Shown: in pieces, positions 2,168 through 40,001 of the stretch
Numbering within the stretch: the first letter of the stretch is position 1
Layout of the letters: each line of letters opens with the position of its first letter
Source of the DNA: a virus
Length of the DNA stretch: 64,000 nucleotides
Virus record (IMG/VR): IMGVR_UViG_3300035661_000023
Coordinates: 33,346-97,345 of that record
Reading direction: 5' to 3' (one strand)
Notes under the pieces: model-generated
Databases searched by the model: none
What the model saw: the letters and a program-made list of their open reading frames with translations, nothing else
What the model was told of the DNA's origin: nothing
Program-made: the position numbers and the translations under genes

Positions 2168-3130
2168 TCAAACCTTCCAAACAAATTTAGACTCATCCCA
2201 ATCTCTAGCATATTCCCTCTACATCCCCTAAAAGAAATCATTGAAAGTGTAATCGTTGATTGCTTTATAGAACCACTCAGAGATAGGATCATATGTTACT
2301 TCAAACGGTGGTTGGAAACCGAGCTGTTTGAAGCACTCATTGATTCTTGATTTAACAAAATTCTTCAATTGTTTGGCAGTAATTCCATCCTGTGTGCCCT
2401 TCTCAAACACCATATCAATGATTTCATCTTCATGTTCGAAGATCTTTAGGGCTGCGGTGGTAATTTTACATTTCAATGATTCCCATTGTTCTGCATTCAG
2501 ACCAGCATTTTTTGCCTTGACCTTAAACGCGTAAGCAGAAGCAAGTGCATGCAGATTTTCATCGCGCAGAGAGAAATTGATACCGCGAACTACATTCAAT
2601 AGTTTATTCTTGCCCTGCTACTGGAAGTGTTTCAAGTAAGCAAATGCGGAATAAAGAATAACACCTTCTACCATAGAGAATGTAGCAAGAGCAGCGAGTT
2701 CATCTTCTTCTGAAATGATCTGTGCGATATGCTCCATACGTTCTTTTAGCACTGGGTTATCAAGATACTACATGTAAAAGTTTTCGTCATCCAAATGCAG
2801 AAGTTGATTGATCTTATTATAAAAGGGTCCATGTACTGCAAGTTCGAACATAGCAAATGTGGAAGCCATCCGGTGCCATTCTACACCATCAAACATTCCC
2901 TTGAATCTGCCTCCCCACCATTCGTCCCCTGCATGTGTCTCATACAGAGAGAACAATTTCAGTGTAGTGATTACCCCATGTTTTTCTGCCGGTGTGAAAT
3001 TCACCAACACATCTTGAATATCTTTTTCTACATTTACTTCTTCTGGTAACCAAAATATCTTTAGTTGTTTATCCGTAAACTCTTGTGGTACTGGATCTTT
3101 ATCAATCGGGATTAAGTGTTTTGCTAGCAT
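2168..3130 (-). CDS. nrdB: Class I ribonucleotide reductase beta subunit, 320 aa with 4 in-frame TAG (2768, 2618, 2228, 2219)
   Basis: FWLPEE, ELAVH, VEGVILYS, RDENLH and NDFF motifs all in one frame; only TAG interrupts; ends TGA. Confidence 0.93.
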
Positions 3131-12289: not shown

Positions 12290-13723
12290 TTAGGATGCGT
12301 AGACGCGATCTTGTTCTGCAGTCAATGACAGAGAAATGGCTTTACTTCTAGTCAGAGTACCAGTTGCAACCACATACTTGCCAGAACCTGGGCGGACACC
12401 AATCAAGGTAATCGCTCTGTCTGTAGCCGGAGTTGCTCCACCCTGTACGTTACCATCATAGTCATACGTGAAGGCAATAGATGAAGCGGAAATAGTTCCT
12501 GTGATTGGTGTGCCCTAGGCATCGTTAACTGTGATCGCACCAGATTCACCATAGTCGTTACCAGCACCCGGAGGAGATGTGAACATCATGCGATATGAAG
12601 AACCAGCTCCTATCAATGGCGCGTTGAATGTAATTGTACCAACTGCGGTGTATGGGTTAGTTCTCAGCGTATTTGAATCATCATAGAATTCAATACGGTT
12701 AGAGTCAGCTGACTGGATATTATCGATGTAAACTGATTGTGATGTTACCAGAGTATCACCAACGAATGTCAACAGAGAAGAAGCAGTCTTACCAGTTACA
12801 GAACCTGCGGTACCGGCAGTGTTGATGTTACTGTTCTGACGCAACAAGTATTGAATCTTGGTGTAGATCTGTTCAAGTGTTGCATTGTTACCGTTAATGA
12901 TAATCTTGAAGTTTCTAGAAGTACCACCGATAACTCTTGTCTGGTTTTCCGTGTAGTAGGAAACATTAATACCAGAGTATGGTGCTCCTGACATTGCAGC
13001 ATCAAGAATAGGTGAACCAGAAGAGTAGGTCTTCAAGTCATCTTCGTTTGACAGCAGAACATTAACGATGTTAGCACCAGTAGATGTCTTACCGGTATCA
13101 GCCAGCACTGAGTCTTTGTACTTCTTGTTAGATTCTCTAACGAATGCCTTGAAGTAAGTTCTCTTGTCGAATGTTGTCGTTGTTGCATCAGCTGTAATAT
13201 CACCATAAATCTGGATACCTTCGTCACATTGGTCAGTGAATGTAAAGTTAGTAGGAGCATCAATAGAAGCTCGTTGATAGTACAACTGAGAACCAGCGGA
13301 TACGGAACCCAGACCCACAATACCCACATACTGTCTAGCCAAAGCACCACCAGAGATTAGGTTACCAGAACCATCATACACACCAGCTGTGAATTCAGAC
13401 CAACCACCATCACGCAGCATTTGACGGGTTGCATCATTAGCTGGTTTCCAGCCGTTGTACCGAGCACCATCAGTACCAAATTGGAACTGACCAGAAAGTC
13501 GGTCAATCGCATACATCGGAAATGGAGAATCTTGGTATGCAAGCGTATTCCACAAGTCAACAAACTTAGAATATAAAGCAGCTAGTTCTACTCCATCTTT
13601 GGCAATTAAGCCGTTTGTAGTAGAACCGTCTGCAGACGCAATAAGTGTAAATGTTTTAGCAACTTCGTCAATTGTAAGATTTGTTCCTACTATAAGTTGC
13701 GTTCTGCTATTCAGCTTTGCCAT
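12290..13723 (-). CDS. Tail/baseplate-associated structural protein, 477 aa (1 TAG at 12515)
   Basis: VNDA*GTPITG read-through to TAA; beta-rich; late promoter upstream. Confidence 0.7.
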
Positions 13724-13747
13724 GAATTTTCCTTAATAGTTTTGATA

Positions 13748-13755
13748 TATTTATA
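13748..13755 (-). promoter_or_regulatory. T4 late promoter TATAAATA
   Basis: Exact T4 gp55 consensus about 25 nt upstream of the ATG at 13723. Confidence 0.75.
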
Positions 13756-13822
13756 GTCAAGCGAGAAACACATATGATCTTTAGTTGTGTATTAAGTTCA
13801 TCTTTAGTGTAACTTGTGTAAC

Positions 13823-16800
13823 TTACTCATAAGCCAGATCAACCAGTTGAGCAACAGGAATTGATGCATCGGTGGTACCTAGCGCATAATTACGAATTGT
13901 GTATGGTTTGAATCCAGGTTTGTACACAACAATGTCTACATTCTGTTGAACTGAATACTCATAGTTCCAATATGTCACCGAGTTGTTTTCTATAGAAGCA
14001 ATAATGGTTGTTGTACCTGCCATCAGGACCACGATATCAGATCCAGTCTTAAGACCAGTCAGTGTCAGATTGTTCACAGATGCTGGATAGTAATTTCCCA
14101 CTACATTGTCTAGTTCTGTAAACAGGCGGATTGCCATTAACTTACTGGTCGGTTGTGGTGCAAATACACCAATTGTGTTAGTCGCAGTGATTGTCCCGTG
14201 AATACCAACAAGACTCACCTATCCAGATGCAGTAGACAAACTCGCCGCTGTGTTGCCATAAGATGCTGTGGTTACAGTAAATGTTGTGGCGTTTACAATA
14301 GCATGCACGAAGTAGGTAGTTCCCGTGCTCAGACCACCAATCGCGGTTTCTACTCTGAACCCCATACTTGAGTGTAGGTTAGCAGTGCTGTCACATGTTA
14401 CTGCTGCATACGTACCGGTTATTACTGTAGATGTAACACCTTGAGGAAAGTTAACTACCCATGTGGAGCCGGAGCCGGAGCCGGAGATATTTGCTACAAT
14501 ATATGTACCAGAAGTAACCCCGGTGCCTGTCACCAGCATACCAGGTACTATTGTGCCAGCAGCTAATGTTCCGACTGTTAATGTAGTTCCAGCAATTGTG
14601 GATCCATTCAGTGTCGCTGTTGTATTAGCAGCAGTTGCTGAAATTGTAGCTACTAAAGTACTAGAATAAATTGTGTCACCGGTAGCCCAAGACCCAGTAA
14701 CGCTGGAGCACGCGATGCTACCAGTTGTTGATGTAGTTATAGTTTCGTCGGCTTCAATTACAGCCGTACCAGTTGCAGAGGCGGCTGATAGTGTGTTTCT
14801 AATTGTTTCACCGATGACAAACTGTGCAGTCTGCCCTGTGTATTTCATGACATATCTTGCACTAACCCGAAACTTGATTCTGAAACCAACTGATGGATCA
14901 AAAGCAGTTTCGTATGCTAGATTGCAGATCCCATTATTGCCGTTTAGCAATTTCCAAGAACCAGAATAACCAGCACCTCTGTCTAAATCATACTCAAGTT
15001 TTGCACCCAGAGATGTTACTGGGCTCAGTCCAATATCAACGCCATAGATGTGTGGCATGCGTCTAGAGAATCCAGTTACACCCTTGATAACATGAGGCCA
15101 CTCGAATGTGACAACATCTGAGTTGGTAGTAAAGAACAAACCACCCGAGTTATCAAAATAAGCATTACCAGATACAAACGCATAAGGTTTCAACGACTTA
15201 GTCGATGGAGACATTCTAACATCCAAACATCCCTTGTTTGCAGCTCCCCATGTCATTTCGTGGAACATGTTATCATAAACCGCAGCAAGTGATGCTGGGT
15301 TAACTGGGAAACTATCCTGAGATGGGTTAGTGGTCATATTCCATGATACAGCACTGTTTACTGGGATAGAATCGCAGCCAGGGGACCCTTTGTAGATTGT
15401 ATCTAAAGAAGAAGCACCCCACGGACTAATTCCGCTTAGGGTTGATGTTACGTTCTGAAACTTGATCCCAGATGATGCGTTGTTAATAATAGAATCAAAA
15501 TACACAGTAGACACATAATTTCTTGGATTGACCATCTTGATATTATGTAAGTACACATTATAAGCAGCTGTGGAATATCCCAACAAGTTACCGACGGAAC
15601 CATTGAACGAGATTGTGGAATTCTTTATCGTGATACCACTAGCTCCGTTCTATGGATACAATAGAACGTTTCTATCAGCCAGATAGTTGTTTGCCGGTTG
15701 ATAATTATCGATCGTGTGATTTGAAGATGAAGCATAAGCAAACGCTACATCTGTTCCACCAGATTCTGTACTGTAAACTTGGTTCTGATCGGTGATTGTA
15801 AAATTAGGTCCTGAATTATCGACATGCAAGTGAGCCCAATACTGACCAGTAGGTGCTGCTTGGATGTTAGTAACAATACCTGCTGGAGCATCATATAGGA
15901 AATAACCAGAAACACCATCAGAGAAGTTGAATAATTGTTGCGGCAAGAATGCAGTAATAGCCGTCGCATTAGGTGGTGTCGGCACTGGTATAGATGATCC
16001 AACTGTGACCATAGCTCGTACAGCTTCTACCATACTACCCATCAGTGGCAATCTGATGACTGCGTTAGTTGCGTTTGATGTTGTTGTAAATGTTACAGAA
16101 TATCTCTTCCATTGGTTAGTCAAAACCAAGCTATTAGTTGTAGTTCCAAACAACAGATCACAAGTAATATAGTCACGAAGATCTGGGTGTCTAGCTCTTA
16201 GATAGACCTAGAATGTATACGGGACTCCGATTCCTGTGTTGATAGTTTGTGTCAGAGTTCCGTTTGCAGCAGCAGCATATAAAGATGCCCCTAGTGCAGT
16301 TCCTAGTGCAGCGTTATTGCCAATAAGGTTGTCAAATGGTGTATACACAGCAGCGTTTGTTGCTGTGATGTTCGATGCCACCCATGTTGTTGCTAGAGTA
16401 TCTGATTGCAGTGCCTGGTTTTGGATGACAACAGGAGCAGTAGCAATGCCAGCCATCTCAGGCAGTTCTTGCCCAACAACAAAGCGTAGTGTTTGATTCA
16501 CAAATGTATTTGTGTTTGCAACGGATACTGTCATGGAAGTTGCAGAGTCTACAGTCTACACTACACTATCTAAGCCAACGTTAGAACCGAAGATATACAT
16601 TCCGGGAGCAGGACTGAAGCCGATATAAGATCTGTTATTACCTCTAGATGTCACATTAGCAGTTAGGTTAGCAGACAGCACGATTGTATCAAAATCTGGC
16701 ACATCTATCACAGTAGTTCCTACTGGAATGCCGGGTCCGGTTACAATTACTCCTGGTATGATACCGTTGGCAAAGAAGTTGAATACCGTAGATGATAGTA

Positions 16801-19800
16801 CGTTTGTACCAACTTTTCCATCAATTTCAAATGATGCTTGCCAGTAGTACCAGCTACCTTGTGTGGTGATTGTGTTAGCCGCAGCAGTGCCAGAGCAGTT
16901 TGCGATCGATGCAGCTCCACCACCGGACAATTTGCGCAGTCTGTAGTAGTACGTCGTTCCTTTAGTCACACCATGTGTGTCATTAAAGAACATCTGCCCA
17001 GCAGTTACTGATTGTGTAGCACCAATTAATGTTGTAGCATCTCTAGCAGTAAAACCTGGTGTAGTTGATCTGAACAACTGATATACACCTTTATAGAAAG
17101 ATGCAGTCATACCAGACGCAGTTTTAGTAGCAGGCTTGTTGATAGTAAACGTTGTGCCGTTTGTGATACCTGTTACAATTGCTCCGTTCACTGGGCTGCC
17201 AGCGGCACCACCGAATAAAGCCATAGCACCAGTTGCAACTTGGTTACCGTTACTTAATACCATGACAGTGCCGACTTGCAGACCAGCAGTTGATGTACAA
17301 GTCACTGTTGTGCTACCGTTTGTTGTAGAAACAGAAGACGCTGTGTTTAGTGCAGTACTAAATTCTGTCGATTGGTGATATACGGAAATTCTGTTATATA
17401 CTGGCATAACATCTGTATACAAAGTCCAGGTAGGAGTTGTTACAGAAATGTCAGAAGTATACGCAAACCTACCCGTTATCGCAGACACAACACCAACGGC
17501 ATTACCATTATTCGCAATGCCAATCCAAGATGTAACATCTGGTAGATATTTCAGAGCAGACCAAGTAACACCATCGGTTGAAGTGGCGAAGCACGCAGAT
17601 GCTTGAGCTGCAGTAAATGCTGTGTGTGATGTAGTATTCCACACAGAACCAGCCATGATCACAAACACAGAACCAGTGAATATGATCTTAGAATATGTCA
17701 TACCTGTGGGGAGAGCTGGTGCAGTGCTAGCTGTCCAGGATGTTCCGTCTGTGCTGTATGCGGTAGGCCCTGTTGTACTTGAACCCGAAATTGCAACGAA
17801 TTTTGAAGCACCGAATGCAATCTATTGCCATAGAGATGATGCTAGAGCACCACCAGCAGTCCAAGTTGCTCCATCTACGGAATATGCAGATGCAGTACTT
17901 GCCACAGACCCACCTGCAATTGCTATATATCTTCCTGCACCGTTTGAAGTTACATCAATCCAAGTGGCTGATGCTAATGTGGTTGCAGTAAAAACGAAGG
18001 ACCCGGTTGTTACACTACCTCTAGTGCCAGCCGTTGACACAGCAGATCCACCAGATACTGCTACCCATTTATTTGTTGCTTGGGTGTTATCAAATGCCAG
18101 TTTTTGCCACTGAGCAGCTGCTGGTGCAGTTGTTACTTGTGACCAATCTTTCCCATTAGTGGAAATTGCAATTAATGTAGAAGCCGCCCCACCACCACCG
18201 ATTGCCATAAAGTAGTTCTGTGTTGGGCACCAGATAATATCTCGCCAGTATGTAGAAGCTGTGGTTGATGCTATAGGTAATTGATATGCAGTCCAAGTTA
18301 CTCCATTATCATCAGAAACCATAGCTGTGTTAGCACCAACAGCTATAGCCCCGTCTAAAAATACCCATGATCCATTACCGTATGCCATACAAGGTGCCGT
18401 TGTTTGCTACCAAGCCGGAGTTACACCCACACGCTGTGGCATTTGCAAATACTTCGGGAAATTGCCATGCACACCACAAATTGGCATAGAATCTACATAA
18501 GACGTTACATCTTGCACATTTGTTGTTTTGTATGATCTAGACTTCAACCAGTATTTTGTGTCTTTTGCAATGTACTGTTCGTTCTTAACATCTGCCAGAA
18601 CACGCATACCAGATGCCCAGCTATACCCCTCATTGTTGATACCAGTTCTGTGTGTGATATTAGAAATCTTGGTGTTGTTGACAACATAGCACCCCATCAC
18701 ACCATTGACATTATACAGCTTGATGTTAGAATAGTTATGATTATTACCAGCACTATTTGGTGAAAATGCAGTGTTGTTTGGTCTAGTTTTTGGATATGAA
18801 CCAACCTGGATTCCTTTGAAGTTGTTGATCGTGACATTATTAGAATAACTAAGTCCAAAGAATCCTGCATATGCTGAGCCAATCGATGGGTTTGTCTACA
18901 AACCGTAGTTCATATGACCACCAAACGTCATCGTCACATTTTGTATATTTGCATTAGAAACATATGACCACAAAGCACTAGTCAACGAGTTACCAAAAGA
19001 GGCAGTATTGCCTAATAACATACGATGTTCGCGAACTACCCAGGGTCCATAATATGTGTACGCAGTTGTGCTAGTCGTTGTGTGTGCAGCAGTAGAAATC
19101 ACTAATGATGTCGCAGAAACTACTGAGGTAACAGTTGCCGCATGAATAGCTGCACCACCAGTAGTCAACAACATACCAGGAATAATAGCAGTTGATGACG
19201 GTATTGTGATTGTTGTTGAAGATGCAGTAGAAGCACCAGTAGCACCAAGAGCTACTGGGCTAGTTACCATCATCCCGAATGATGGTAACTAGAATGCTAC
19301 GTTATCCATCGATAGCTGGTAGCACTCTGAAATGAATGGAACACACTGCCCACCTGAGTTAGTGATTGATACAGAACTAGCTTGTGAGAAGTTAGAATAT
19401 GATTCACCAAACAGAGTCTTGTCAAAGCTAAATTTCCCCCCACCAGCAGAAGTTCTTAAGTGGAACGGAGCATTACTAGATGTAAACACCGCATTCATGA
19501 AGTTAGCCGGAGAATAATCCGTTAACATTATGTTTGGGACTCTAATCTTAGCACCGGTCGGCGGGAGAGTCCCATTCGTGCCATCTCCGAATCTCAGTGT
19601 AGTTGTATTCTGTGCATAGATAGGCAGAATTGCTGCCATTGGTATATTAGCAAAACCAGTAGTACCAGAAGATGATGCAAAAGATATTACACCATTAATC
19701 GTGAAACTAGTTGAAGATAGTACTTCTTGTACCACAGCACCACCAGATATACTTCTGCTGTACACCCAAGTACCGGGTACTAACCCAGCGGTCGATGTGC

Positions 19801-21304
19801 AGGTTATGACATTTGTATTTACAATTGCATTTGTGTTGCCCAACATTAAGTATTGGCAAGCAGATTTATTAAAATCTTGAGTGAATACTTTTCCCCCATC
19901 GCCCTTCCCGACGGAACGAAATCCATTACGCATCCAGTTCCATTGTGCATAGTCTGGAGAACCAGAAACATTAACCCATGCTTCATATACACCAGATCCA
20001 GAAGCTGTCTCTACCCATATAGTTGGGATATAGTCACCGGTAGTATATGGAGATATGACGGTCTGCCCAGCGATTCCGGAGCCAGTGCCAATCTCAATCC
20101 AATTGCCGATGGTTTCGAATGTACCAAGTCCGTTTGTGCAGTCGATAGCACTGAGAACTGCTGTTGTGTTAAGTCTGCCAGTACCAAATCGAATTGGTGT
20201 TGTTGTGCTAGAGTTTGTTACAGAGACCTTCCCATTAGTGACGGTCAGTGCTGTAGTTCCTGCTAAGAAGACTTTCTGATCAGTGTTGACAGTCAAAACA
20301 GCACCGTTGTTTACAGTAATGCCATCACCAGATACTAATCTTGGTTTGATCAGTTTAAATTCTCTGTTATATGCAGCAGATGTGATTGTGGTCACAGACC
20401 ACTTGACTCCGTCATATGAGAAAGCACCCACCGTACTTGAAATGGTGAGAGCAGTAAACATCTGCAAACCGTTCGAAGCAGCTTTACCACCAGCAATAAT
20501 CCAGTTACCAGTAGCAGGAAGTGTAGATGCAAGCCACGTGGCACCGCCATCCAAAGAATATGCACCTGTTGTTCCAGTTGATGGAACTGCTACCCATGTC
20601 CCATTAGAATTGCCAATGTTTGCCCAGCTAATCATAGACCATGCTGCAGCCGATGGCAGAACTCCAGATCGCAGAGTCCAGTTCTGCCCATCGGTAGATG
20701 TACACACATCTTGAGACCCATTGGCGATAAGCACAAACACACCATTGGCAAACTTCAGATCAATCCAAGCAGCAGTAGAGGGTAGAGTAACTGAGGACCA
20801 AGTCGATCCAGCATCGATCTAATATGCAGCTGATGTAGAAGAAGGGGCTACTGTTACGAATGTATTGTTGCCAAATGCTAGCAATGACCAAGCTGCAGCA
20901 GATGGAAGTGTAGAAGCAGTCCAGCTAATACCTTCCTTGTGTCGCATGTAAGCAGCAGAAGTTGTGGATGTGTTAACAGAAACAAATGACCCATTACCGT
21001 ATACACATTTCTTCCATGCAGTACCAGTAGGTAATTGTGTAGCAGCATTAGTAGAAGCAGCACCAGAAGTTAGAGGAGCAATAACGGCGGCACTAGTTCT
21101 GTCTGCGGCTACTAAAACACATAATCCATCATCAGAAAAGTCCCAACCTGTCCATGTAGATACAGCAGAGAATATATTACCAGAAGTAGTCCAATTCTGC
21201 CCATTGACAGAATAATAAGAAGTTTGCGCGCCGTTTATGGGTGTGTAAAACTGGTACCCGACTTCTGAAATATTTTGATCTGTTGTTACAACGTATTGAG
21301 TCAT
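13823..21304 (-). CDS. Giant tail fibre/adhesin, 2,493 aa with 9 in-frame TAG
   Basis: Ten ORF-track fragments share one frame and are separated only by TAG (20819, 19289, 18896, 18407, 17822, 16556, 16208, 15650, 14219); Asp-box/BNR-like YSxDGxxW repeats, FN3-like TYYYRL, Thr/Ser-rich. Confidence 0.88.
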
Positions 21305-21843
21305 TAATTAAAACCCTCTGGCCATCCTGTATTGATATCTATTGATTCTGGATTTTCAGAATCATCCACCAATGATTTTAAGTACTCTGCATATCCATAA
21401 ATGCTTTGTTCTTGAATCATCTGGGAATAGTATATCTATTTAATGAGGTCAGAGGTCATTAAAATCTTAGAACTACTCATTGTTTTCCACATTAAATCTT
21501 GTGGGATATTCTCACCAGCAATCAGTAGAGCCAATTGTTGTAATTTAGAATGTGTGTCGGAGTGAAACCAATTTTCTCCTACTTTACAACCACCATTGGT
21601 CATCTTATCATCTCTGATTGCTTGTATATTATTCCAAACATCATCTGCTATCTTTTTATTAGCAATGTCCATTACACCAAAATCACCATTCACTGCTCTA
21701 TTGAATAGTTCAACTCCCATTGGGTCTGTATCTGCTGAACTGGCGATATATGGAGTTTCTACTTCCTGATCTTCAAATACTACATTCATTGAAATAGTAT
21801 GTCTAGTGCGCCATTTTGGTGAATTAGCAGATATGTAGTTCAT
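21304..21843 (-). CDS. Tail fibre assembly-like protein (DUF4376-like), 179 aa (1 TAG)
   Basis: IQAIRD, WFHSD, WKTM and C-terminal IDINTGWP; directly upstream of the fibre gene. Confidence 0.7.
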
Positions 21844-21848
21844 AATAA

Positions 21849-22154
21849 TTATTCTGTCTTATTAAATTTTACTGTGTTCAATAGATTACTAATATTAGAA
21901 CTAATTTTCTCAATATCTTCATCCATTCTAGCACTCTCAGTTGCAATGATATTGATTTCTTTACTTAGATGATCTACTTGTCTTTTAACTAAATGCAATG
22001 CAGTATTGAAGTTTTCGTGCTGCATTTTGTCATTGCTACAAGAATCATATAATATTTGTTTTATTTTATCAGATGTCTTTTTCTGTCTAATCAAAACAAA
22101 TACTATAACTACAAGCAATAATAGAATCAGTAGATCTATATAATGCATAATCAC
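21849..22154 (-). CDS. Membrane-anchored coiled-coil protein
   Basis: N-terminal TM followed by heptad pattern. Confidence 0.6.
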   Translation of the reverse strand: MIMHYIDLLILLLLVVIVFVLIRQKKTSDKIKQILYDSCSNDKMQHENFNTALHLVKRQVDHLSKEINIIATESARMDEDIEKISSNISNLLNTVKFNKTE

Positions 22155-22444
22155 ACCTTGATATCTTTATATTTGGAGATTTCATTCCGAAGTTTATCTA
22201 CTTCAGATCCCAATGTTTGAATTTCCATGTTGAGCATGTGGTTCTCTTTGACCAACTGAATCAAATCATAATTCAGTTTCTGCATCTCTTGTCTTAGTAA
22301 ATCTAATTGTTTGCCTAATTCAACATTACGAAAGATCATCAATTTGATACAATCTGTATTGTGCTTCTTTTCTGTATACAAAAGAAGACACAACGCAACG
22401 CAGACTAGACAAATTAGTAGGGAAATGAATTCCAGATATATCAT
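22151..22444 (-). CDS. Membrane-anchored coiled-coil protein
   Basis: N-terminal TM followed by heptad pattern. Confidence 0.6.
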   Translation of the reverse strand: MIYLEFISLLICLVCVALCLLLYTEKKHNTDCIKLMIFRNVELGKQLDLLRQEMQKLNYDLIQLVKENHMLNMEIQTLGSEVDKLRNEISKYKDIKV

Positions 22445-22770
22445 GGTTGTGGTTTCTTATTGAGCAAATCCTCTAGCTCCTGAATCCTGGAATTCGAGTC
22501 TCGAATTTGGTGCATCAATGACAGATTCTGCTCATGAATCTCTGTCAATTGATCACGCGCCTTTTTTAATTCTGTAGACAGTAAAGTGACTTGGCTCATC
22601 AGCTATTCAATCTGCTGATGCTGCAATGTACCAACCGAAGTTACTTCTTCAATTTTAGTTTTCTTAAAATAAAACCAGATGCCGCTAAGAAGTGCAACGA
22701 AGCTTATACCGATAGAAACCTATCCGCCGCCATTCTAGTTCCCTATCAATGAAGCGATTATTGTGTCCAC
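22441..22770 (-). CDS. Membrane-anchored coiled-coil protein (3 TAG, GTG start)
   Basis: Visible only with read-through; TM then coiled coil; ATGA overlap with the next gene. Confidence 0.6.
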
Positions 22771-23150
22771 TCTCGATCCTTATTCTTATGTTCACTTACA
22801 ATAATGGTGTTTATGACGAATGCAACAAAACAAGAAACTCCTATCACCATCATGATAGTCATTTCAATCGTTGAAGATGATTTATTTAATGCAAAAAACA
22901 CCCATATAGAACCGGCTCCCCATAAGGATGCAATTCTTGCATATAATTGATGTGGATGGAATGCAATTGCAACCAATTGAATAGACTATACCAATATGCA
23001 CAATATCCCCCATAGAGGAACATAGTTTTCTAATTGATCTGTGTCAATTTGAAATAGAAATACAACACCAATGATCAGCATCGCGATACTAGATGCGACC
23101 TCTAGTGCACGTGTGTCTGGTGTAATGAAATTCCTGACAACTGGGCTCAT
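22758..23150 (-). CDS. Four-TM membrane protein (1 TAG)
   Basis: Hydrophobic helices; ATGA coupling at 23147-23150. Confidence 0.6.
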
Positions 23151-23440
23151 CTGTTTTTTCTCACGTTGTGCATGTTGAAAATTAGCATCACAAGAATATT
23201 AAAGATGGACCAAGCATAATTGGACCACTCTGTACCTTGCAGATCACCAAGAATATAGAAAGAATACTACCAACCTGACTGTGCAATAATTAGAACAACA
23301 CATGCCATACTGGCAAGATAGATTTTTACTTTATCCATCTTACGTCTGGAATTCTTGTAAGTAAATCCCATGCCAAACAAGGCTGTAATCGCCATTACTA
23401 TTGGCACAAGATCTACAAAAAACATTATCCCGATTTGCAT
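23147..23440 (-). CDS. Three-TM membrane protein (1 TAG)
   Basis: Hydrophobic helices; visible only with read-through. Confidence 0.55.
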
Positions 23441-23457
23441 TTAGTGCTCCATCTATA

Positions 23458-23793
23458 TTATTCCACCAGGATTTGACCAAACTGAAATCTGATTTTGGTT
23501 ACCCCAGGTGAGCCAGTCACACTGTACACATAACGAGGTCTAGTTAATGTTGTAGTATCTTCTACAATTATTTGATATATGCCTTGCAAAGGTGATGTTT
23601 TGACTATGCTTGCTGCATAAGTTGTACAACCATTCTCATATTCCAAGATCTGACATGTGATGTCAATTTCCTAAATGTCAATTGCAACACCGGTGGAATC
23701 TATTGCTTGGCAAGTGAATGCATTATCCTACCCTTGATAGACATACAAGTCTCTTTTTGAGACTATAATATCCGATTGACTGTTGATGGACAT
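23458..23793 (-). CDS. Small virion adaptor-like beta protein, 111 aa (2 TAG)
   Basis: VYQG*D...AIDI* and RYVY...RFQFGQI resemble the QGSD...IDLTG pattern of T4-like fibre adaptors. Confidence 0.6.
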
Positions 23794-23794
23794 T

Positions 23795-24583
23795 TCAATC
23801 TCCCATCAACTTTCTGACTCTGAGTTTTCTAGCCGTATCATCTGTATTCAGAGAGTATCCGGGCATAGTATAACGTTCTTGATCACGTGCCGGATCGGAT
23901 GTATATTTCTGCACGGAATCTTTTAATGTGTTCTGAGTCTTTAACCCAAGTTTAGAGAGCATACCGATCATGTCGGCATAAATCTTCTTCTGATCTAATG
24001 TCATAGCCTTGGCACCAGCTTTCTTGATCAGTTCATCTACTTGTTTCTGTGGTTCAGTAGCAGATAATTTGATGCTCAGAGCACCAGAGATAATAGAAAT
24101 TGCCTGGAGTTGGTCCTACTTTGTCGCTTCGAACAACTTCTCTGAGTCAATGCCTATCTTTTCAGCAGATTCAAAGATTTTGGAGAAATTCTTATTCTTG
24201 AAATGATCAAACATCTTGATCATACCAACTGGATCTTTAACCGCAGATTCTGAAACTACAGATTCAAATCCCATTGGGATTGAGTGGCCTTTATATGTGC
24301 CAGCTTGAAAATGTAATGATTGTTTAGATGGAATCAGATCAATAGGAAAAACTCTTTTCGTTTGTCCCTATTCATTCACAACGACTACATAATTGCTACG
24401 TTTGTCCAGAATCTCATGCAACTGATCTTCAATCAGTACTGATCTGCCGATGGTGAACACATTCTAAGAGAAGAACTTTTCTCTTTCTGGTGTGGGTTTG
24501 ATCTATTCCTCAACCAGTTTGGCACGTGAACGTTCCTCTGTGTTGCGAAGTTTATTCCCAAAATCTTTGAAATTGATGGCCAT
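23795..24583 (-). CDS. Hypothetical late protein, 262 aa (4 TAG); resembles the C-terminal part of T4-like cytidylyltransferase fusions
   Basis: REKFF..NVFTIG and ILDKRSNYV; own TAAATA upstream (~24615). Confidence 0.6.
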
Positions 24584-27412: not shown

Positions 27413-28071
27413 TTGTTCCACTCCGCCCACATACCTGTTGCTGGGGCATAATATGCACCGCGATTTTGGTACAGTTTGAACTATCTTTTTACATCGAATT
27501 TCAGTTCCAATTTATCAGGCGCAACTGGCATCTCATAGAAATCATTACCCTTTTTTGAAGCTAATGGGACTCCTCCAGCATTCATGATCTGTTGTGCTAT
27601 CTTTTCATCATATGAATCCTTAAGGATTCGAACAAAACCGTGTATTTTAACACCTGGGATCTTGTACAGCTATTGCCAATTACGTCTGCCACCTGCTGTC
27701 TATAAATTGTCTGCTGCTATATTGAATCCAAGAATACTCATAGCAATCCCGTAGAGACTCTTTGCCATACCTCTGCCTCTTAATTCGGGATTGACATGGA
27801 TTAGAGATGCTACTCTAACAGGCACGGGGTAGTCGGTTGGATACCGATTTGTCAATTCTAAGAATCCAGCCTCTACTAACTCTTCTTTTTTAGTGTCAGC
27901 ATAGATCACAATGACGAGTGTATCACCTCGTTTTTCAGACAACCAAAATAGATCAGAGCCACCAGGAAGTGGCTTTAGCTTTTTGTCTGTCTTTGCAATC
28001 GAGCTCGCCGGTTGTAGTGTGAAAGGATAGACCTTATTGATTTCGTTAAGATATTCTTTAAACGACAACAT
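27409..28071 (-). CDS. GNAT-fold putative acetyltransferase, 220 aa (3 TAG)
   Basis: VNPELRGRGMAKSLY acetyl-CoA motif and TAGGRRNW; MLSFKEYLNE N-terminus. Confidence 0.65.
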
Positions 28072-28072
28072 G

Positions 28073-29128
28073 TCAACAGAATCGGAGAGTAAATTTCTGC
28101 CATTCTTCCTATGAACCACCCATTTTTTCTACACCAGCTCTTGTATTAAGAGCTCGAACAAAAGAACGAATGTTAGCTGTCTTTTCTGGGATTTTTCTCT
28201 TTTTCAGAATTTCGATGATTTCTTTTCGTTCTGCTTCATCCAACTTATAGTCAACATCAAGAGGAATCTTCATACAGATCTTGCCAAGGAAGTCATAGAT
28301 TTCTTCATTTGTAGGATCGATGTTGATAATATATCCACGAGTACGCAGAGCACCATCTGGGTCCAATTTGTTTAGTTGCAGATTGGAAATACCAATGATC
28401 TTGCCGGTAAACTCAAATGAACGGGGTAGTTCATCCTGCTCCCCTTCTGAATCCCAATCATAATCAGCAGCATCAACATAATTCTTGCCACCTTTTTGCC
28501 AAGAAATTTTTCTAACTTTTTTAGTATCGGCTGCGGCTTTGAACAAATTCCTAGAATCAACATCTAAGAAAGCGCCATCACTGTCGTCAAAAAGTATAAT
28601 TTCTTTGCGATGCTGAAATAGAATTCTATAGATACCAGCAGTGGACGCAGTGCCTGTTATTTTTACATACCCATCACCATCTGTTTTACCTGCAGCCTTC
28701 AGCTCATCTTCAACGTTTTGCGTTTTACCGGTATTATGGTGATTGATACCATCTGCGGTTAGATATGTATGCTTCTCCGAATCTACTTCCATGTCGTAGA
28801 ATTCGGATTCTCCATAAGTAGAAATATCTGCTACTTTTACCGTACCATTAATAGTTTCAATCTCATCTCCCACAGAAAGATCACGAGCGAATATTTTACC
28901 ATCTGGAGACATAAAAATATGTTCAGACGAGCATTCTACTGTAGCACCGGAATCAAATACCACAGATGTCGATCTTCCAGTTTTTACAACAAAACTTTTC
29001 ACAGGTTTAAAACCATCTTTTGTTTCGATTTTGATCTTAAGATCAGAGATATTATAAAAAGTTCCGATGTCTAGCTTACCGAACTTCTCTTCTACCATCT
29101 ATTTAATTGCCGACAGAGTTGTTTTCAT
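28073..29128 (-). CDS. Split intein C-fragment (132 aa) fused to the C-extein of a P-loop ATPase (2 TAG)
   Basis: Intein blocks CSSEH, FYDMEV and HHN followed by TGKT; Walker B IILFDD; ATG at 29128. Confidence 0.88.
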
Positions 29129-29263
29129 TTAGTTCTTTCAAATAAGAGATTGAGATTATCTTGATTATTTATCAATTCATTCATTTCATCTAAAATAGAG
29201 TTGAAATTGGAAATTATAAGTTTAACCTATTTGAATATTAATTTCAGTCTTGCCGGCTAAACA
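28733..29263 (-). mobile_element. Naturally split mini-intein (IntN 29225-29263, IntC 28733-29128)
   Basis: CLAGKTEINIQIG-TAA, 93-nt spacer, then new ORF ending HN/T; no endonuclease domain. Confidence 0.85.
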
Positions 29264-30157
29264 GCCCCCTCTTCCAGAAATGAACAGGGCTTGAGTTGCA
29301 TTCTACATCAGAAGTTTCATAGCAGTCTTCAAAGAATCTAGCTGCTCCTCGTATGACAGACGCTCGATATCTGCTTCAGATGTACCTTCGACTTCAACTT
29401 CTTCTTTCTACCCAGGTTGAACAGAGTAAGAAACAACTTCATCATCCCCACTTACTGCTGCCAGGATCTTTGCTGCATCTAACTTAGCAACAACTTGTTG
29501 ATTTACTACATTCTTGGTACCTTCCTTCTGTAGGATGTTTGGGTACATTTTGATAATGAGACCGTTGATCATGTTCCAGCCTGCGCCAAATTTCTTTGAA
29601 CCCCCGGCCTTATATTGATCGTTCATATGAATACCTTGCTTCCATGCTGCAATAACGGCAGTGAGAGTCTTGGAAATTTCACCAGAAGAATATCTAGCTT
29701 CATTGATTTCAGCTACACGAGTGAAGTCTGTTATCATTGGTATGTGCTGAATCTACACAAACTCATTAATGTAGAAACCAGATTTATCTAAACCACCCTG
29801 TATTAGGTCTACCACCATTGGGAGAACTTTAATAATCTACTGCTCATGATCTAGTTTAATATGATGAGATGGGTTTGGCTGTGGAGTCTTAGAACCATCC
29901 CAGAAATCGATGGAAACTAGTCCCTGTGAGCCGATTTTACCAACTGTTTTCCAGTTCATACGTACGGATTTAGCACTCCCTCCATCCATGATAAAGAATC
30001 TGACACCAACATGTTGTACACCACCTGATGGAATAAAAACTTCTGGTGTTGGGTATGGGAACACTTTATTCCCAAGTTTTGAACGCAGATACTTCATGAT
30101 TAGAAGTTGCGAGGATGTAAAATCTTTTGAGCGAATTGCTTCGGTAATTAGGTTCAT
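29222..30157 (-). CDS. N-extein of the P-loop ATPase plus 13-aa split intein N-fragment (4 TAG)
   Basis: ...ALFISGRGG-CLAGKTEINIQIG then TAA; single frame from ATG 30157. Confidence 0.85.
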
Positions 30158-30219
30158 GTTGAAAATATCTCCATCTAATATGTTGATCATGAAGCTATTT
30201 AATCAATATCTACTTGCTA

Positions 30220-30239
30220 AAAAGCCCTCCGAAGAGGGC
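30220..30239 (-). terminator. Rho-independent terminator with UUCG tetraloop
   Basis: GCCCTC-TTCG-GAGGGC-TTTT on the minus strand. Confidence 0.85.
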
Positions 30240-39139: not shown

Positions 39140-39934
39140 TTAGTTGGAAGGTAAAAATCCTTTATTTTCACATGCCACAATAAAGTCTCGTACCAATGAA
39201 GATCTAACAATATCAGCTGGTGTAAAAATTACTTCTTGGTATGCTTTCATAGTACGAGCAACCTCGAGAAATTTCCCAAGACCAGATACATCATTTTTGC
39301 TTTTGATAAGATCATCTTGAAATTTATCTCCGCAGAAAATGATTTTTGATCGATGACCGACTCGAGTCAGCACAGTAGAAAGTTCATGCCAAGTTTGTGA
39401 TTGACATTCATCAACGATAATAATTGCATCATCGACCTAGATGCCGCGAATCGCTGTAGTAGAAATAAACCTAATATACCCCTGCTCTTTTAGACGCTCG
39501 TATGCATCCTATCTACCAAATAAAGTAGAACAGATCTCACGATAAGGCATTTCAAAGATTTCTTGTTTTGCCTCTAAATCTCCAGGCAAAAAACCCTGAT
39601 CTCTGGTCTGTACAGTCGATCTCACCACAACCACTTCTTTGAACGGATTGTCTTTTTCCAAGACTTCCTCAATAGCTTTGTACATTGCGCAAAAGCTCTT
39701 TCCAGTACCCGGACTGCCAAGCAGGAAATTGAAGTACCCACCGCCCTTATACATCTCAAAGAACTTCTCTTGATTCTCAGTTAGAGCAGAGAAGGTTTGC
39801 AGGTGATCCAACTTGATCTTCAGAGCATTCTATACTCTAGGTTGATGTGTGTGTTGATGTACTTCCTGTTCTAAATATTCATCTCGTTTAGTAGATGAAT
39901 TACTAATGCCTGCGGTTTTTCTGTTGCTAGCCAT
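39140..39934 (-). CDS. phoH: PhoH-like protein, 264 aa (3 TAG)
   Basis: GSPGTGKS, GFLPG, IRGI*VDDAIIIVDECQ, TRVG, IIFCGD and DIVRS. Confidence 0.92.
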
Positions 39935-40001
39935 TTGATTCCTTTTCGTAGAAACATTCAATTGAACACTACTAATTTATTATACCGGAATCTTGGTGAT
40001 C

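Follow-up and report, generated by a model that had tools for sequence, protein, structure and literature searches.

A fractured NrdC.10-like AAA+ ATPase gene of a TAG-recoding phage, predicted to be rejoined by a split intein with a 13-residue N-fragment

How a phage might obtain an intact P-loop ATPase from a gene that is cut within its Walker A motif is the question raised by a pair of genes from an uncultured T4-like phage, on the minus strand of the window, which is the whole 64,000-nt stretch of viral DNA analysed here. The standard code breaks the region into fragments, while reading TAG as a sense codon gives two adjoining genes (Table 1). A preliminary description of the locus had an upstream gene ending in FISGRGG and CLAGKTEINIQIG at a true TAA, followed by a 93-nt spacer and a second gene, and we recovered this arrangement in full. 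Judged from sequence comparison and structure modelling, the locus is best explained as a fractured gene for a NrdC.10-like AAA+ ATPase whose product would be rejoined by a split intein with an N-fragment of 13 aa, an account that as a whole we hold at a probability of about 0.85.

The gene pair, its recoded TAG codons and the host ATPase

Although the longest reading frame of the N gene begins at 30190, we place its start at the ATG at 30157, since homologues start with MNL(L/F)xEAIR, the database copy of the N protein has 311 aa and a GGAG lies upstream. The two gene halves keep their original order and orientation at one locus, as is characteristic of fractured genes, and the ATPase gene occurs only once on the contig. 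A terminator-like hairpin closely precedes the N gene; between the two halves none was found. The Shine-Dalgarno sequence ahead of the C-intein gene is weak; the +1 frame of the spacer is open, and its TGA overlaps the ATG of the C-intein. The motif TAAATA that had been pointed out in the spacer at 29167-29172 is indeed present, with coordinates shifted by one base (29171-29166). Reading it as a late promoter was rejected: the site offers only GATAAATA, and the perfect TATAAATA occurs twice in the window against a chance expectation of 3.5, so that a motif rarer than chance makes TAAATA no promoter evidence. Sigma70-like matches were likewise no commoner than in shuffled sequence.

Table 1. 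Positions of the features of the fractured ATPase gene in the window
Feature	Position	Strand	Remarks
Terminator-like hairpin	30224..30239	-	Just upstream of N gene
N gene	30157-29222	-	311 aa: extein ending FISGRGG, then CLAGKTEINIQIG and TAA
N-extein	29264..30157	-	298 aa; N-terminal domain and first half of Walker A
In-frame TAGs of N gene (4)	29839-37, 29755-53, 29410-08, 29305-03	-	
Walker A, first half (GRGG)	29275-29264	-	
N-intein, CLAGKTEINIQIG	29225..29263	-	13 aa; block A, Cys1 nucleophile
TAA stop, end of N precursor	29222..29224	-	After core residue 13, as in several diverged lineages
Spacer	29129..29221	-	93 nt
C gene	29128-28073	-	351 aa with TAG read through
C-intein	28733..29128	-	132 aa; helix alpha1, ECSSEH, FYDMEVD, HHN; block B His70, block F Asp112, His131-Asn132
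In-frame TAG of C gene, codon 10	29101-29099	-	
C-extein	28076..28732	-	219 aa; Thr+1, second half of Walker A, remaining AAA+ core, lid
Walker A, second half (TGKT)	28732-28721	-	
Walker B (IILFDD)	28600-28583	-	Inside C-extein
In-frame TAG of C gene, codon 340	28111-28109	-	
TGA stop of C gene	28075-28073	-	

On the sequence evidence TAG is a sense codon here, and both genes require its decoding, at six sites in all. When TAG is read as sense, the residues in ORFs of at least 200 aa rise from 13,317 to 24,001 on the 97-kb contig, and solved NrdB proteins can be aligned over the full length of a NrdB homologue that has four in-frame TAGs. Within the C gene, the stretch MKTTLSAIK before the TAG at codon 10, a codon that had already caught attention, is conserved in relatives without a TAG there. 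The tail EEWQKFTLRFC after the TAG at codon 340 is conserved in TAG-less relatives as well and matches only with read-through. A single base separates the TGA of the C gene from the ATG of the next gene (TGAcATG at 28069-28075; MLSFKEYLNE...), a tight packing that supports read-through of this second TAG. No tRNA, suppressor tRNA included, was found on the 97-kb contig.

As for the amino acid inserted, homologues mostly have Ser at the TAG sites of the ATPase (87/89, 63/90 and 33/about 90 at three sites), and the nearest relatives of the C-intein have Ser at codon 10. One ATPase site corresponds to Gln in the closest relatives, and the TAG sites of NrdB align with R, E/A, A/K and V/P, with no Ser pattern. 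TAG may be read as Ser in this phage and not as the usual Gln. The recoding reaches further genes of the window: the NrdB homologue (Ribonuc_red_sm, E 1e-38; 2168-3130, minus strand) holds its four TAGs and a PhoH homologue (E 1e-36; 39140-39961, minus strand) three, showing that conserved replication-type enzymes, beyond structural genes, depend on it.

The site of the break is readily seen by comparison with homologues that lack the intein, a comparison that had been proposed for this locus. These proteins have 515-517 aa and read ...GRGGTGKTQNVEDE... without interruption, and joining the two exteins of the window (298 + 219 = 517 aa) would restore GRGGTGKT exactly as in the intein-free P0027, P0030, P0036 and P0037, together with the Walker B motif, in line with the ATPase of about 517 aa that had been envisaged. 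The N-extein is 68% identical to P0030 over residues 1-302 and the C-extein 83% identical to its residues 298-516. Most of the ~160 related loci in viral and metagenome contigs are intein-free, and all that were inspected read GxGG(T/V/I)GKT.

Homology (E 2e-17) links the host protein to the hypothetical protein NrdC.10 of T4, and the only PHROGs family matched by the host is phrog_1250, which is of unknown function. Searches with the host protein against Pfam, NCBIfam (P0030 included) and PDB sequences returned no match, nor did a profile of the intein-free homologues find a real one among PDB sequences; the AAA+ fold is visible by structure only. In the model of P0030 (pLDDT 82) the C-terminal half takes up an AAA+ fold, matching RuvB, NorQ, Vps4 and FtsH-like chains with E about 2e-5, and the protein atlas places the host protein near viral AAA clusters. 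With GRGGTGKT, LFDD, an alpha/beta core and a helical lid, the host is, as far as sequence and model go, a T4 NrdC.10-like AAA+ ATPase.

A VidaL-like intein cut after residue 13

The C gene opens with the 132-aa C-intein that had been reported, its CSSEH, FYDMEV and HHN motifs followed by TGKT. Its best match among PDB sequences is the split intein VidaL (6vgv, E 5e-7), with other inteins next. The AlphaFold2 model of the C-intein (mean pLDDT 89.6) begins with a helix at residues 5-16 and continues with the strands of the HINT fold, and the top Foldseek matches to this model are all inteins, again with VidaL 6vgv in first place (E 2.8e-7, rmsd 1.8 A over 105 columns). VidaL is only about 28% identical to the C-intein, yet it is the best solved match by both sequence and fold. 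Because of this sequence match and because the junction restores the motif of all intein-free homologues, the C-intein likeness and the junction motif are, at sequence level, beyond chance. Pfam searches with both precursors and an NCBIfam search with the C precursor gave no meaningful match, nor did the last 26 residues of the N half, too short a query, find any in the PDB.

Conservation follows the catalytic residues. In alignments of 36-40 relatives His70 of block B, Asp112 of block F, His131, Asn132 and Thr133 are invariant, the last in agreement with the earlier proposal of Thr as the +1 nucleophile, and Cys1 is found in every N-intein of the family but one Ser1 lineage. Within the TxxH motif of block B, the Thr position is Ser in the window and variable in relatives. 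The intein has features of class 1, namely Cys1 directly after the N-extein (GRGG|C), the block F Asp, the block G His-Asn before Thr+1 and the HINT fold, and those of a natural S1-type split, with two genes arranged as TAA, 93-nt spacer and ATG and a break after strand beta2 and before helix alpha1. Sequence and model together support a naturally split intein of the VidaL kind that is cut after residue 13 and would rebuild a Walker A motif with Thr at +1.

VidaL (PDB 6vgv/6vgw) is, according to the account of it in PMC13014065, which cites Neugebauer 2017 and Burton 2020, likewise a natural, cysteine-dependent split intein with the S1 cut right after strand beta2 and a long C-fragment. It differs in its N-fragment of 16 aa and its Ser at +1, and it is proven active with a t1/2 of about 1 min, whereas splicing by the intein of the window is predicted. 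Since its crystal construct ends in ...HASGK, VidaL probably also sits in a P-loop.

In the course of events that we propose, a contiguous mini-intein of roughly 145 aa stood ancestrally in GRGG|TGKT, with the fourth Gly before it and the Thr after it. The gene would then have been broken into two, and later loss of an endonuclease in this phage would have left the 93-nt spacer. One transcript probably yields both the 311-aa N precursor and the 351-aa C precursor, each of them requiring TAG to be decoded as an amino acid. The 13-residue beta-hairpin would dock into the nearly complete C-intein, and Cys1, the block B His, the block F Asp, the penultimate His, the terminal Asn and Thr+1 would carry out standard class 1 splicing, releasing the intein and leaving a 517-aa ATPase with an intact P-loop.

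Not every part of this picture speaks for a working intein. The endonuclease is absent, which places the locus late in the homing cycle, the Thr of block B is replaced and the ribosome binding site is weak, as might be expected of a decayed relic whose halves no longer splice and whose products are inactive or heading for loss. We consider this unlikely, as the catalytic residues are all invariant in more than 35 diverged sequences and the exteins keep their high identity to intact homologues without frameshifts. The split form of the C-intein is moreover present in over 30 diverged proteins at 46-84% identity, and the compact split persists in several lineages over this range.

AAA+ ATPases in general need an intact P-loop, and this one would presumably need it too. 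In a further alternative, the halves associate without splicing, and the ATPase would work as two chains that the reassembled intein keeps in a non-covalent complex. Split-intein fragments do bind tightly, and a sequence alone cannot separate binding from splicing. An intein retained inside the P-loop would, however, block nucleotide binding, and Cys1, His131, Asn132 and Thr+1 serve chemistry only, yet are strictly conserved, which makes such a complex even less likely than a relic. By sequence and fold, the split intein of the window is most likely active in splicing.

Five states of one insertion site

In relatives, the same insertion site is found empty, occupied by a contiguous mini-intein, invaded by an endonuclease, split with a decayed endonuclease stump, or split in compact form. 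Contiguous mini-inteins of about 145-151 aa occur in P0127, P0026, P0032, P0144 (664 aa) and L027-L029. In P0127, the closest contiguous allele (69% identical to the N half), CLAGKTEVNTTAG is directly followed by VTTLDSIKTTVAEKYGKLEIG (VTTLDSIK...). As no extra residues stand at the break, the two fragments of the window sum to the whole intein and nothing is missing.

The same alleles argue against the idea of an intein that is in truth contiguous, its apparent split being due to faulty assembly or sequencing or being overcome by read-through or frameshifting. In favour of this idea, both genes lie in one frame, and one stop codon is already recoded in this phage. That common frame, which runs through the spacer, nevertheless contains seven TAA/TGA stops within 93 nt, and each half is recorded elsewhere, in identical form, as a protein of its own, in clusters of 5 and 2 member sequences, with the C half on 5 contigs. 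Diverged relatives, finally, stop at the same residue with spacers of 13, 144 and 1281 nt, and we regard an artefact or bypass as highly improbable, the least probable of the alternatives to a naturally split intein.

Phage fractured genes had been described as often holding a homing endonuclease between the halves, with none at this locus, and both statements hold: four relatives (L006, L090, L012 and L086) carry endonuclease genes there, while the window has 93 nt only and no free-standing endonuclease. Between the halves of L006 and L090 lie ORFs of 417-435 aa that share 39% identity, and a related C-terminal endonuclease piece is present in L086. In L012 the ORF is 351 aa long and contains a DUF559/Vsr-like domain (PF04480, E 6.5e-7). 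Decay is seen in the 144-nt spacer of L008, which keeps the 3' end of a gene of the L006 type (61% over 28 aa; E 1e-7), and in the 305-nt spacer of L102, which keeps pieces of the Vsr-like gene (E 1e-12). Compact splits are those of the window and of L085, with its 13-nt spacer. The similarity between the spacer of the window and endonuclease C-termini is marginal (shuffle p 0.05-0.1), and the spacer may be the final remnant of a homing endonuclease gene that has been lost.

The ORFs of the L006 type (L006:1746-2999, L090:1188-2492, L086:1-357) share repeated EHWLxKGYSxxEAKxKVSE modules and a C-terminal KIGIT...VFGWTEV domain. That of L006 is without a Pfam or NCBIfam match, and these endonuclease-like ORFs may represent a group of homing endonucleases not described before.

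Dassa et al. 2009 (PMC2677866) described phage enzyme genes that are likewise broken in place by a split intein, with free-standing GIY-YIG or Vsr-like endonuclease genes between the halves in relatives. At their gp41-7 locus the endonuclease is lost and the halves adjoin, and the window fits the same "endonuclease lost" stage. All but one of their inteins break at the canonical site, with N parts of 88-105 aa, whereas the intein of the window breaks after residue 13, and a NrdC.10-like ATPase is not among their eight host types. As read from these sequences, the five-state series supports the gene-breaking model of that study (PMC2677866), at the S1 and not the canonical position.

Length of the N-fragment and implications

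Throughout the family the N-intein consists of the same 13-residue core with a tail of 0-20 residues, the exception being a single case of 11 residues. The window shares the length of 13 aa with P0125, P0128, P0129, P0130, P0137, P0143, L006, L008 and L085; longer N-inteins have 15 aa (P0140, L090), 18 aa (P0135, P0139), 26 aa (L102) or 32-33 aa (P0134, P0136, L012). The tail of a longer N-intein runs into the endonuclease gene at least in L012, while the window has the bare core. The 11-aa case, P0138 (CLDPMTEIELA), is known here from its protein record alone. It is listed from the same 5,996-nt JGI contig as P0022, a C half and its putative partner, and a scan of viral contigs for P0022 gave no match.

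A lineage with Ser1 is represented by L012 (1865-1978 and 2992-3396; also L013 and L014), where SFSGSTLVNVMVN with a 20-aa tail is combined with Thr+1, so that both splice-junction nucleophiles are non-cysteine. Its Vsr-like endonuclease gene overlaps the tail of the N-intein, and its C-intein retains one Cys near block B.

The passages on N-fragment length in PMC13014065 and PMC10189870 give 15-37 aa for natural atypical N-fragments in papers up to 2026, which agrees with the background on which the preliminary description relied. In them PolB16 OarG holds the record with 15 aa, the S1 split is otherwise represented by VidaL, and the 11-aa M86 fragment is described as engineered. Going by its sequence and measured against the natural fragments in these passages, the 13-aa N-fragment is shorter than any characterised one. 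With the shortest published natural fragments at 15 and 16 aa, this is a modest record and the mechanism is not new; as the S1 split and the Cys1 design are already known from VidaL, what is gained is a new host protein and a fragment shorter by two to three residues.

PolB16 OarG, as portrayed in PMC10189870, is also a natural, metagenome-derived S1-type split intein with a very short N-fragment; it was called the shortest characterised in that 2023 paper and "record-short" in 2026. It is cysteine-less (Ser1) and resides in a PolB polymerase, whereas the intein of the window has Cys1 and is 2 aa shorter. AceL-TerL, GOS-TerL and Cat are further natural short-N split inteins from phage metagenomes that are used for semisynthesis, but they have the S2 split after helix alpha1, N-fragments of 25-37 aa and the large terminase as host. 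Ssp DnaB M86 has an S1 split and an N-fragment of similar size (11 aa), but is laboratory-engineered and evolved, not natural.

On the sequences at hand, we lean slightly towards the view that the 13-residue hairpin is fully active as a natural N-intein even without a tail, as the 11-residue form of a relative may be too; the hairpin would then be the shortest natural one known. Among the 146 cluster representatives related to the C-intein (P0144-P0290), 81 carry the intein at the protein N-terminus, in many extein contexts (HN|TT..A.Y, HN|SGKS, HHN|TY...). In this clade, inteins with an atypical split seem far commoner than one would gather from the literature, the varied exteins pointing to a design that is frequent in uncultured phages, though few have been characterised.

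Short N-inteins are accessible by peptide synthesis and add little to the target protein, for which reason the field values each residue saved. The family supplies the 13-aa core in many natural variants, with Gly at -1 and Thr at +1. If the 13-residue hairpin is active, the family would be a ready-made panel of ultra-short split inteins with dozens of natural variants, including the Ser1/Thr+1 branch of L012.

For genome annotation, the locus is a case in which the standard procedure overlooks a 517-aa ATPase for two separate reasons, the recoding of TAG and the split. With one insertion site seen empty, contiguous, invaded by either of two endonuclease families, decaying and compactly split, this family of loci would record the whole life cycle of an intein and its endonuclease at a non-canonical break point.
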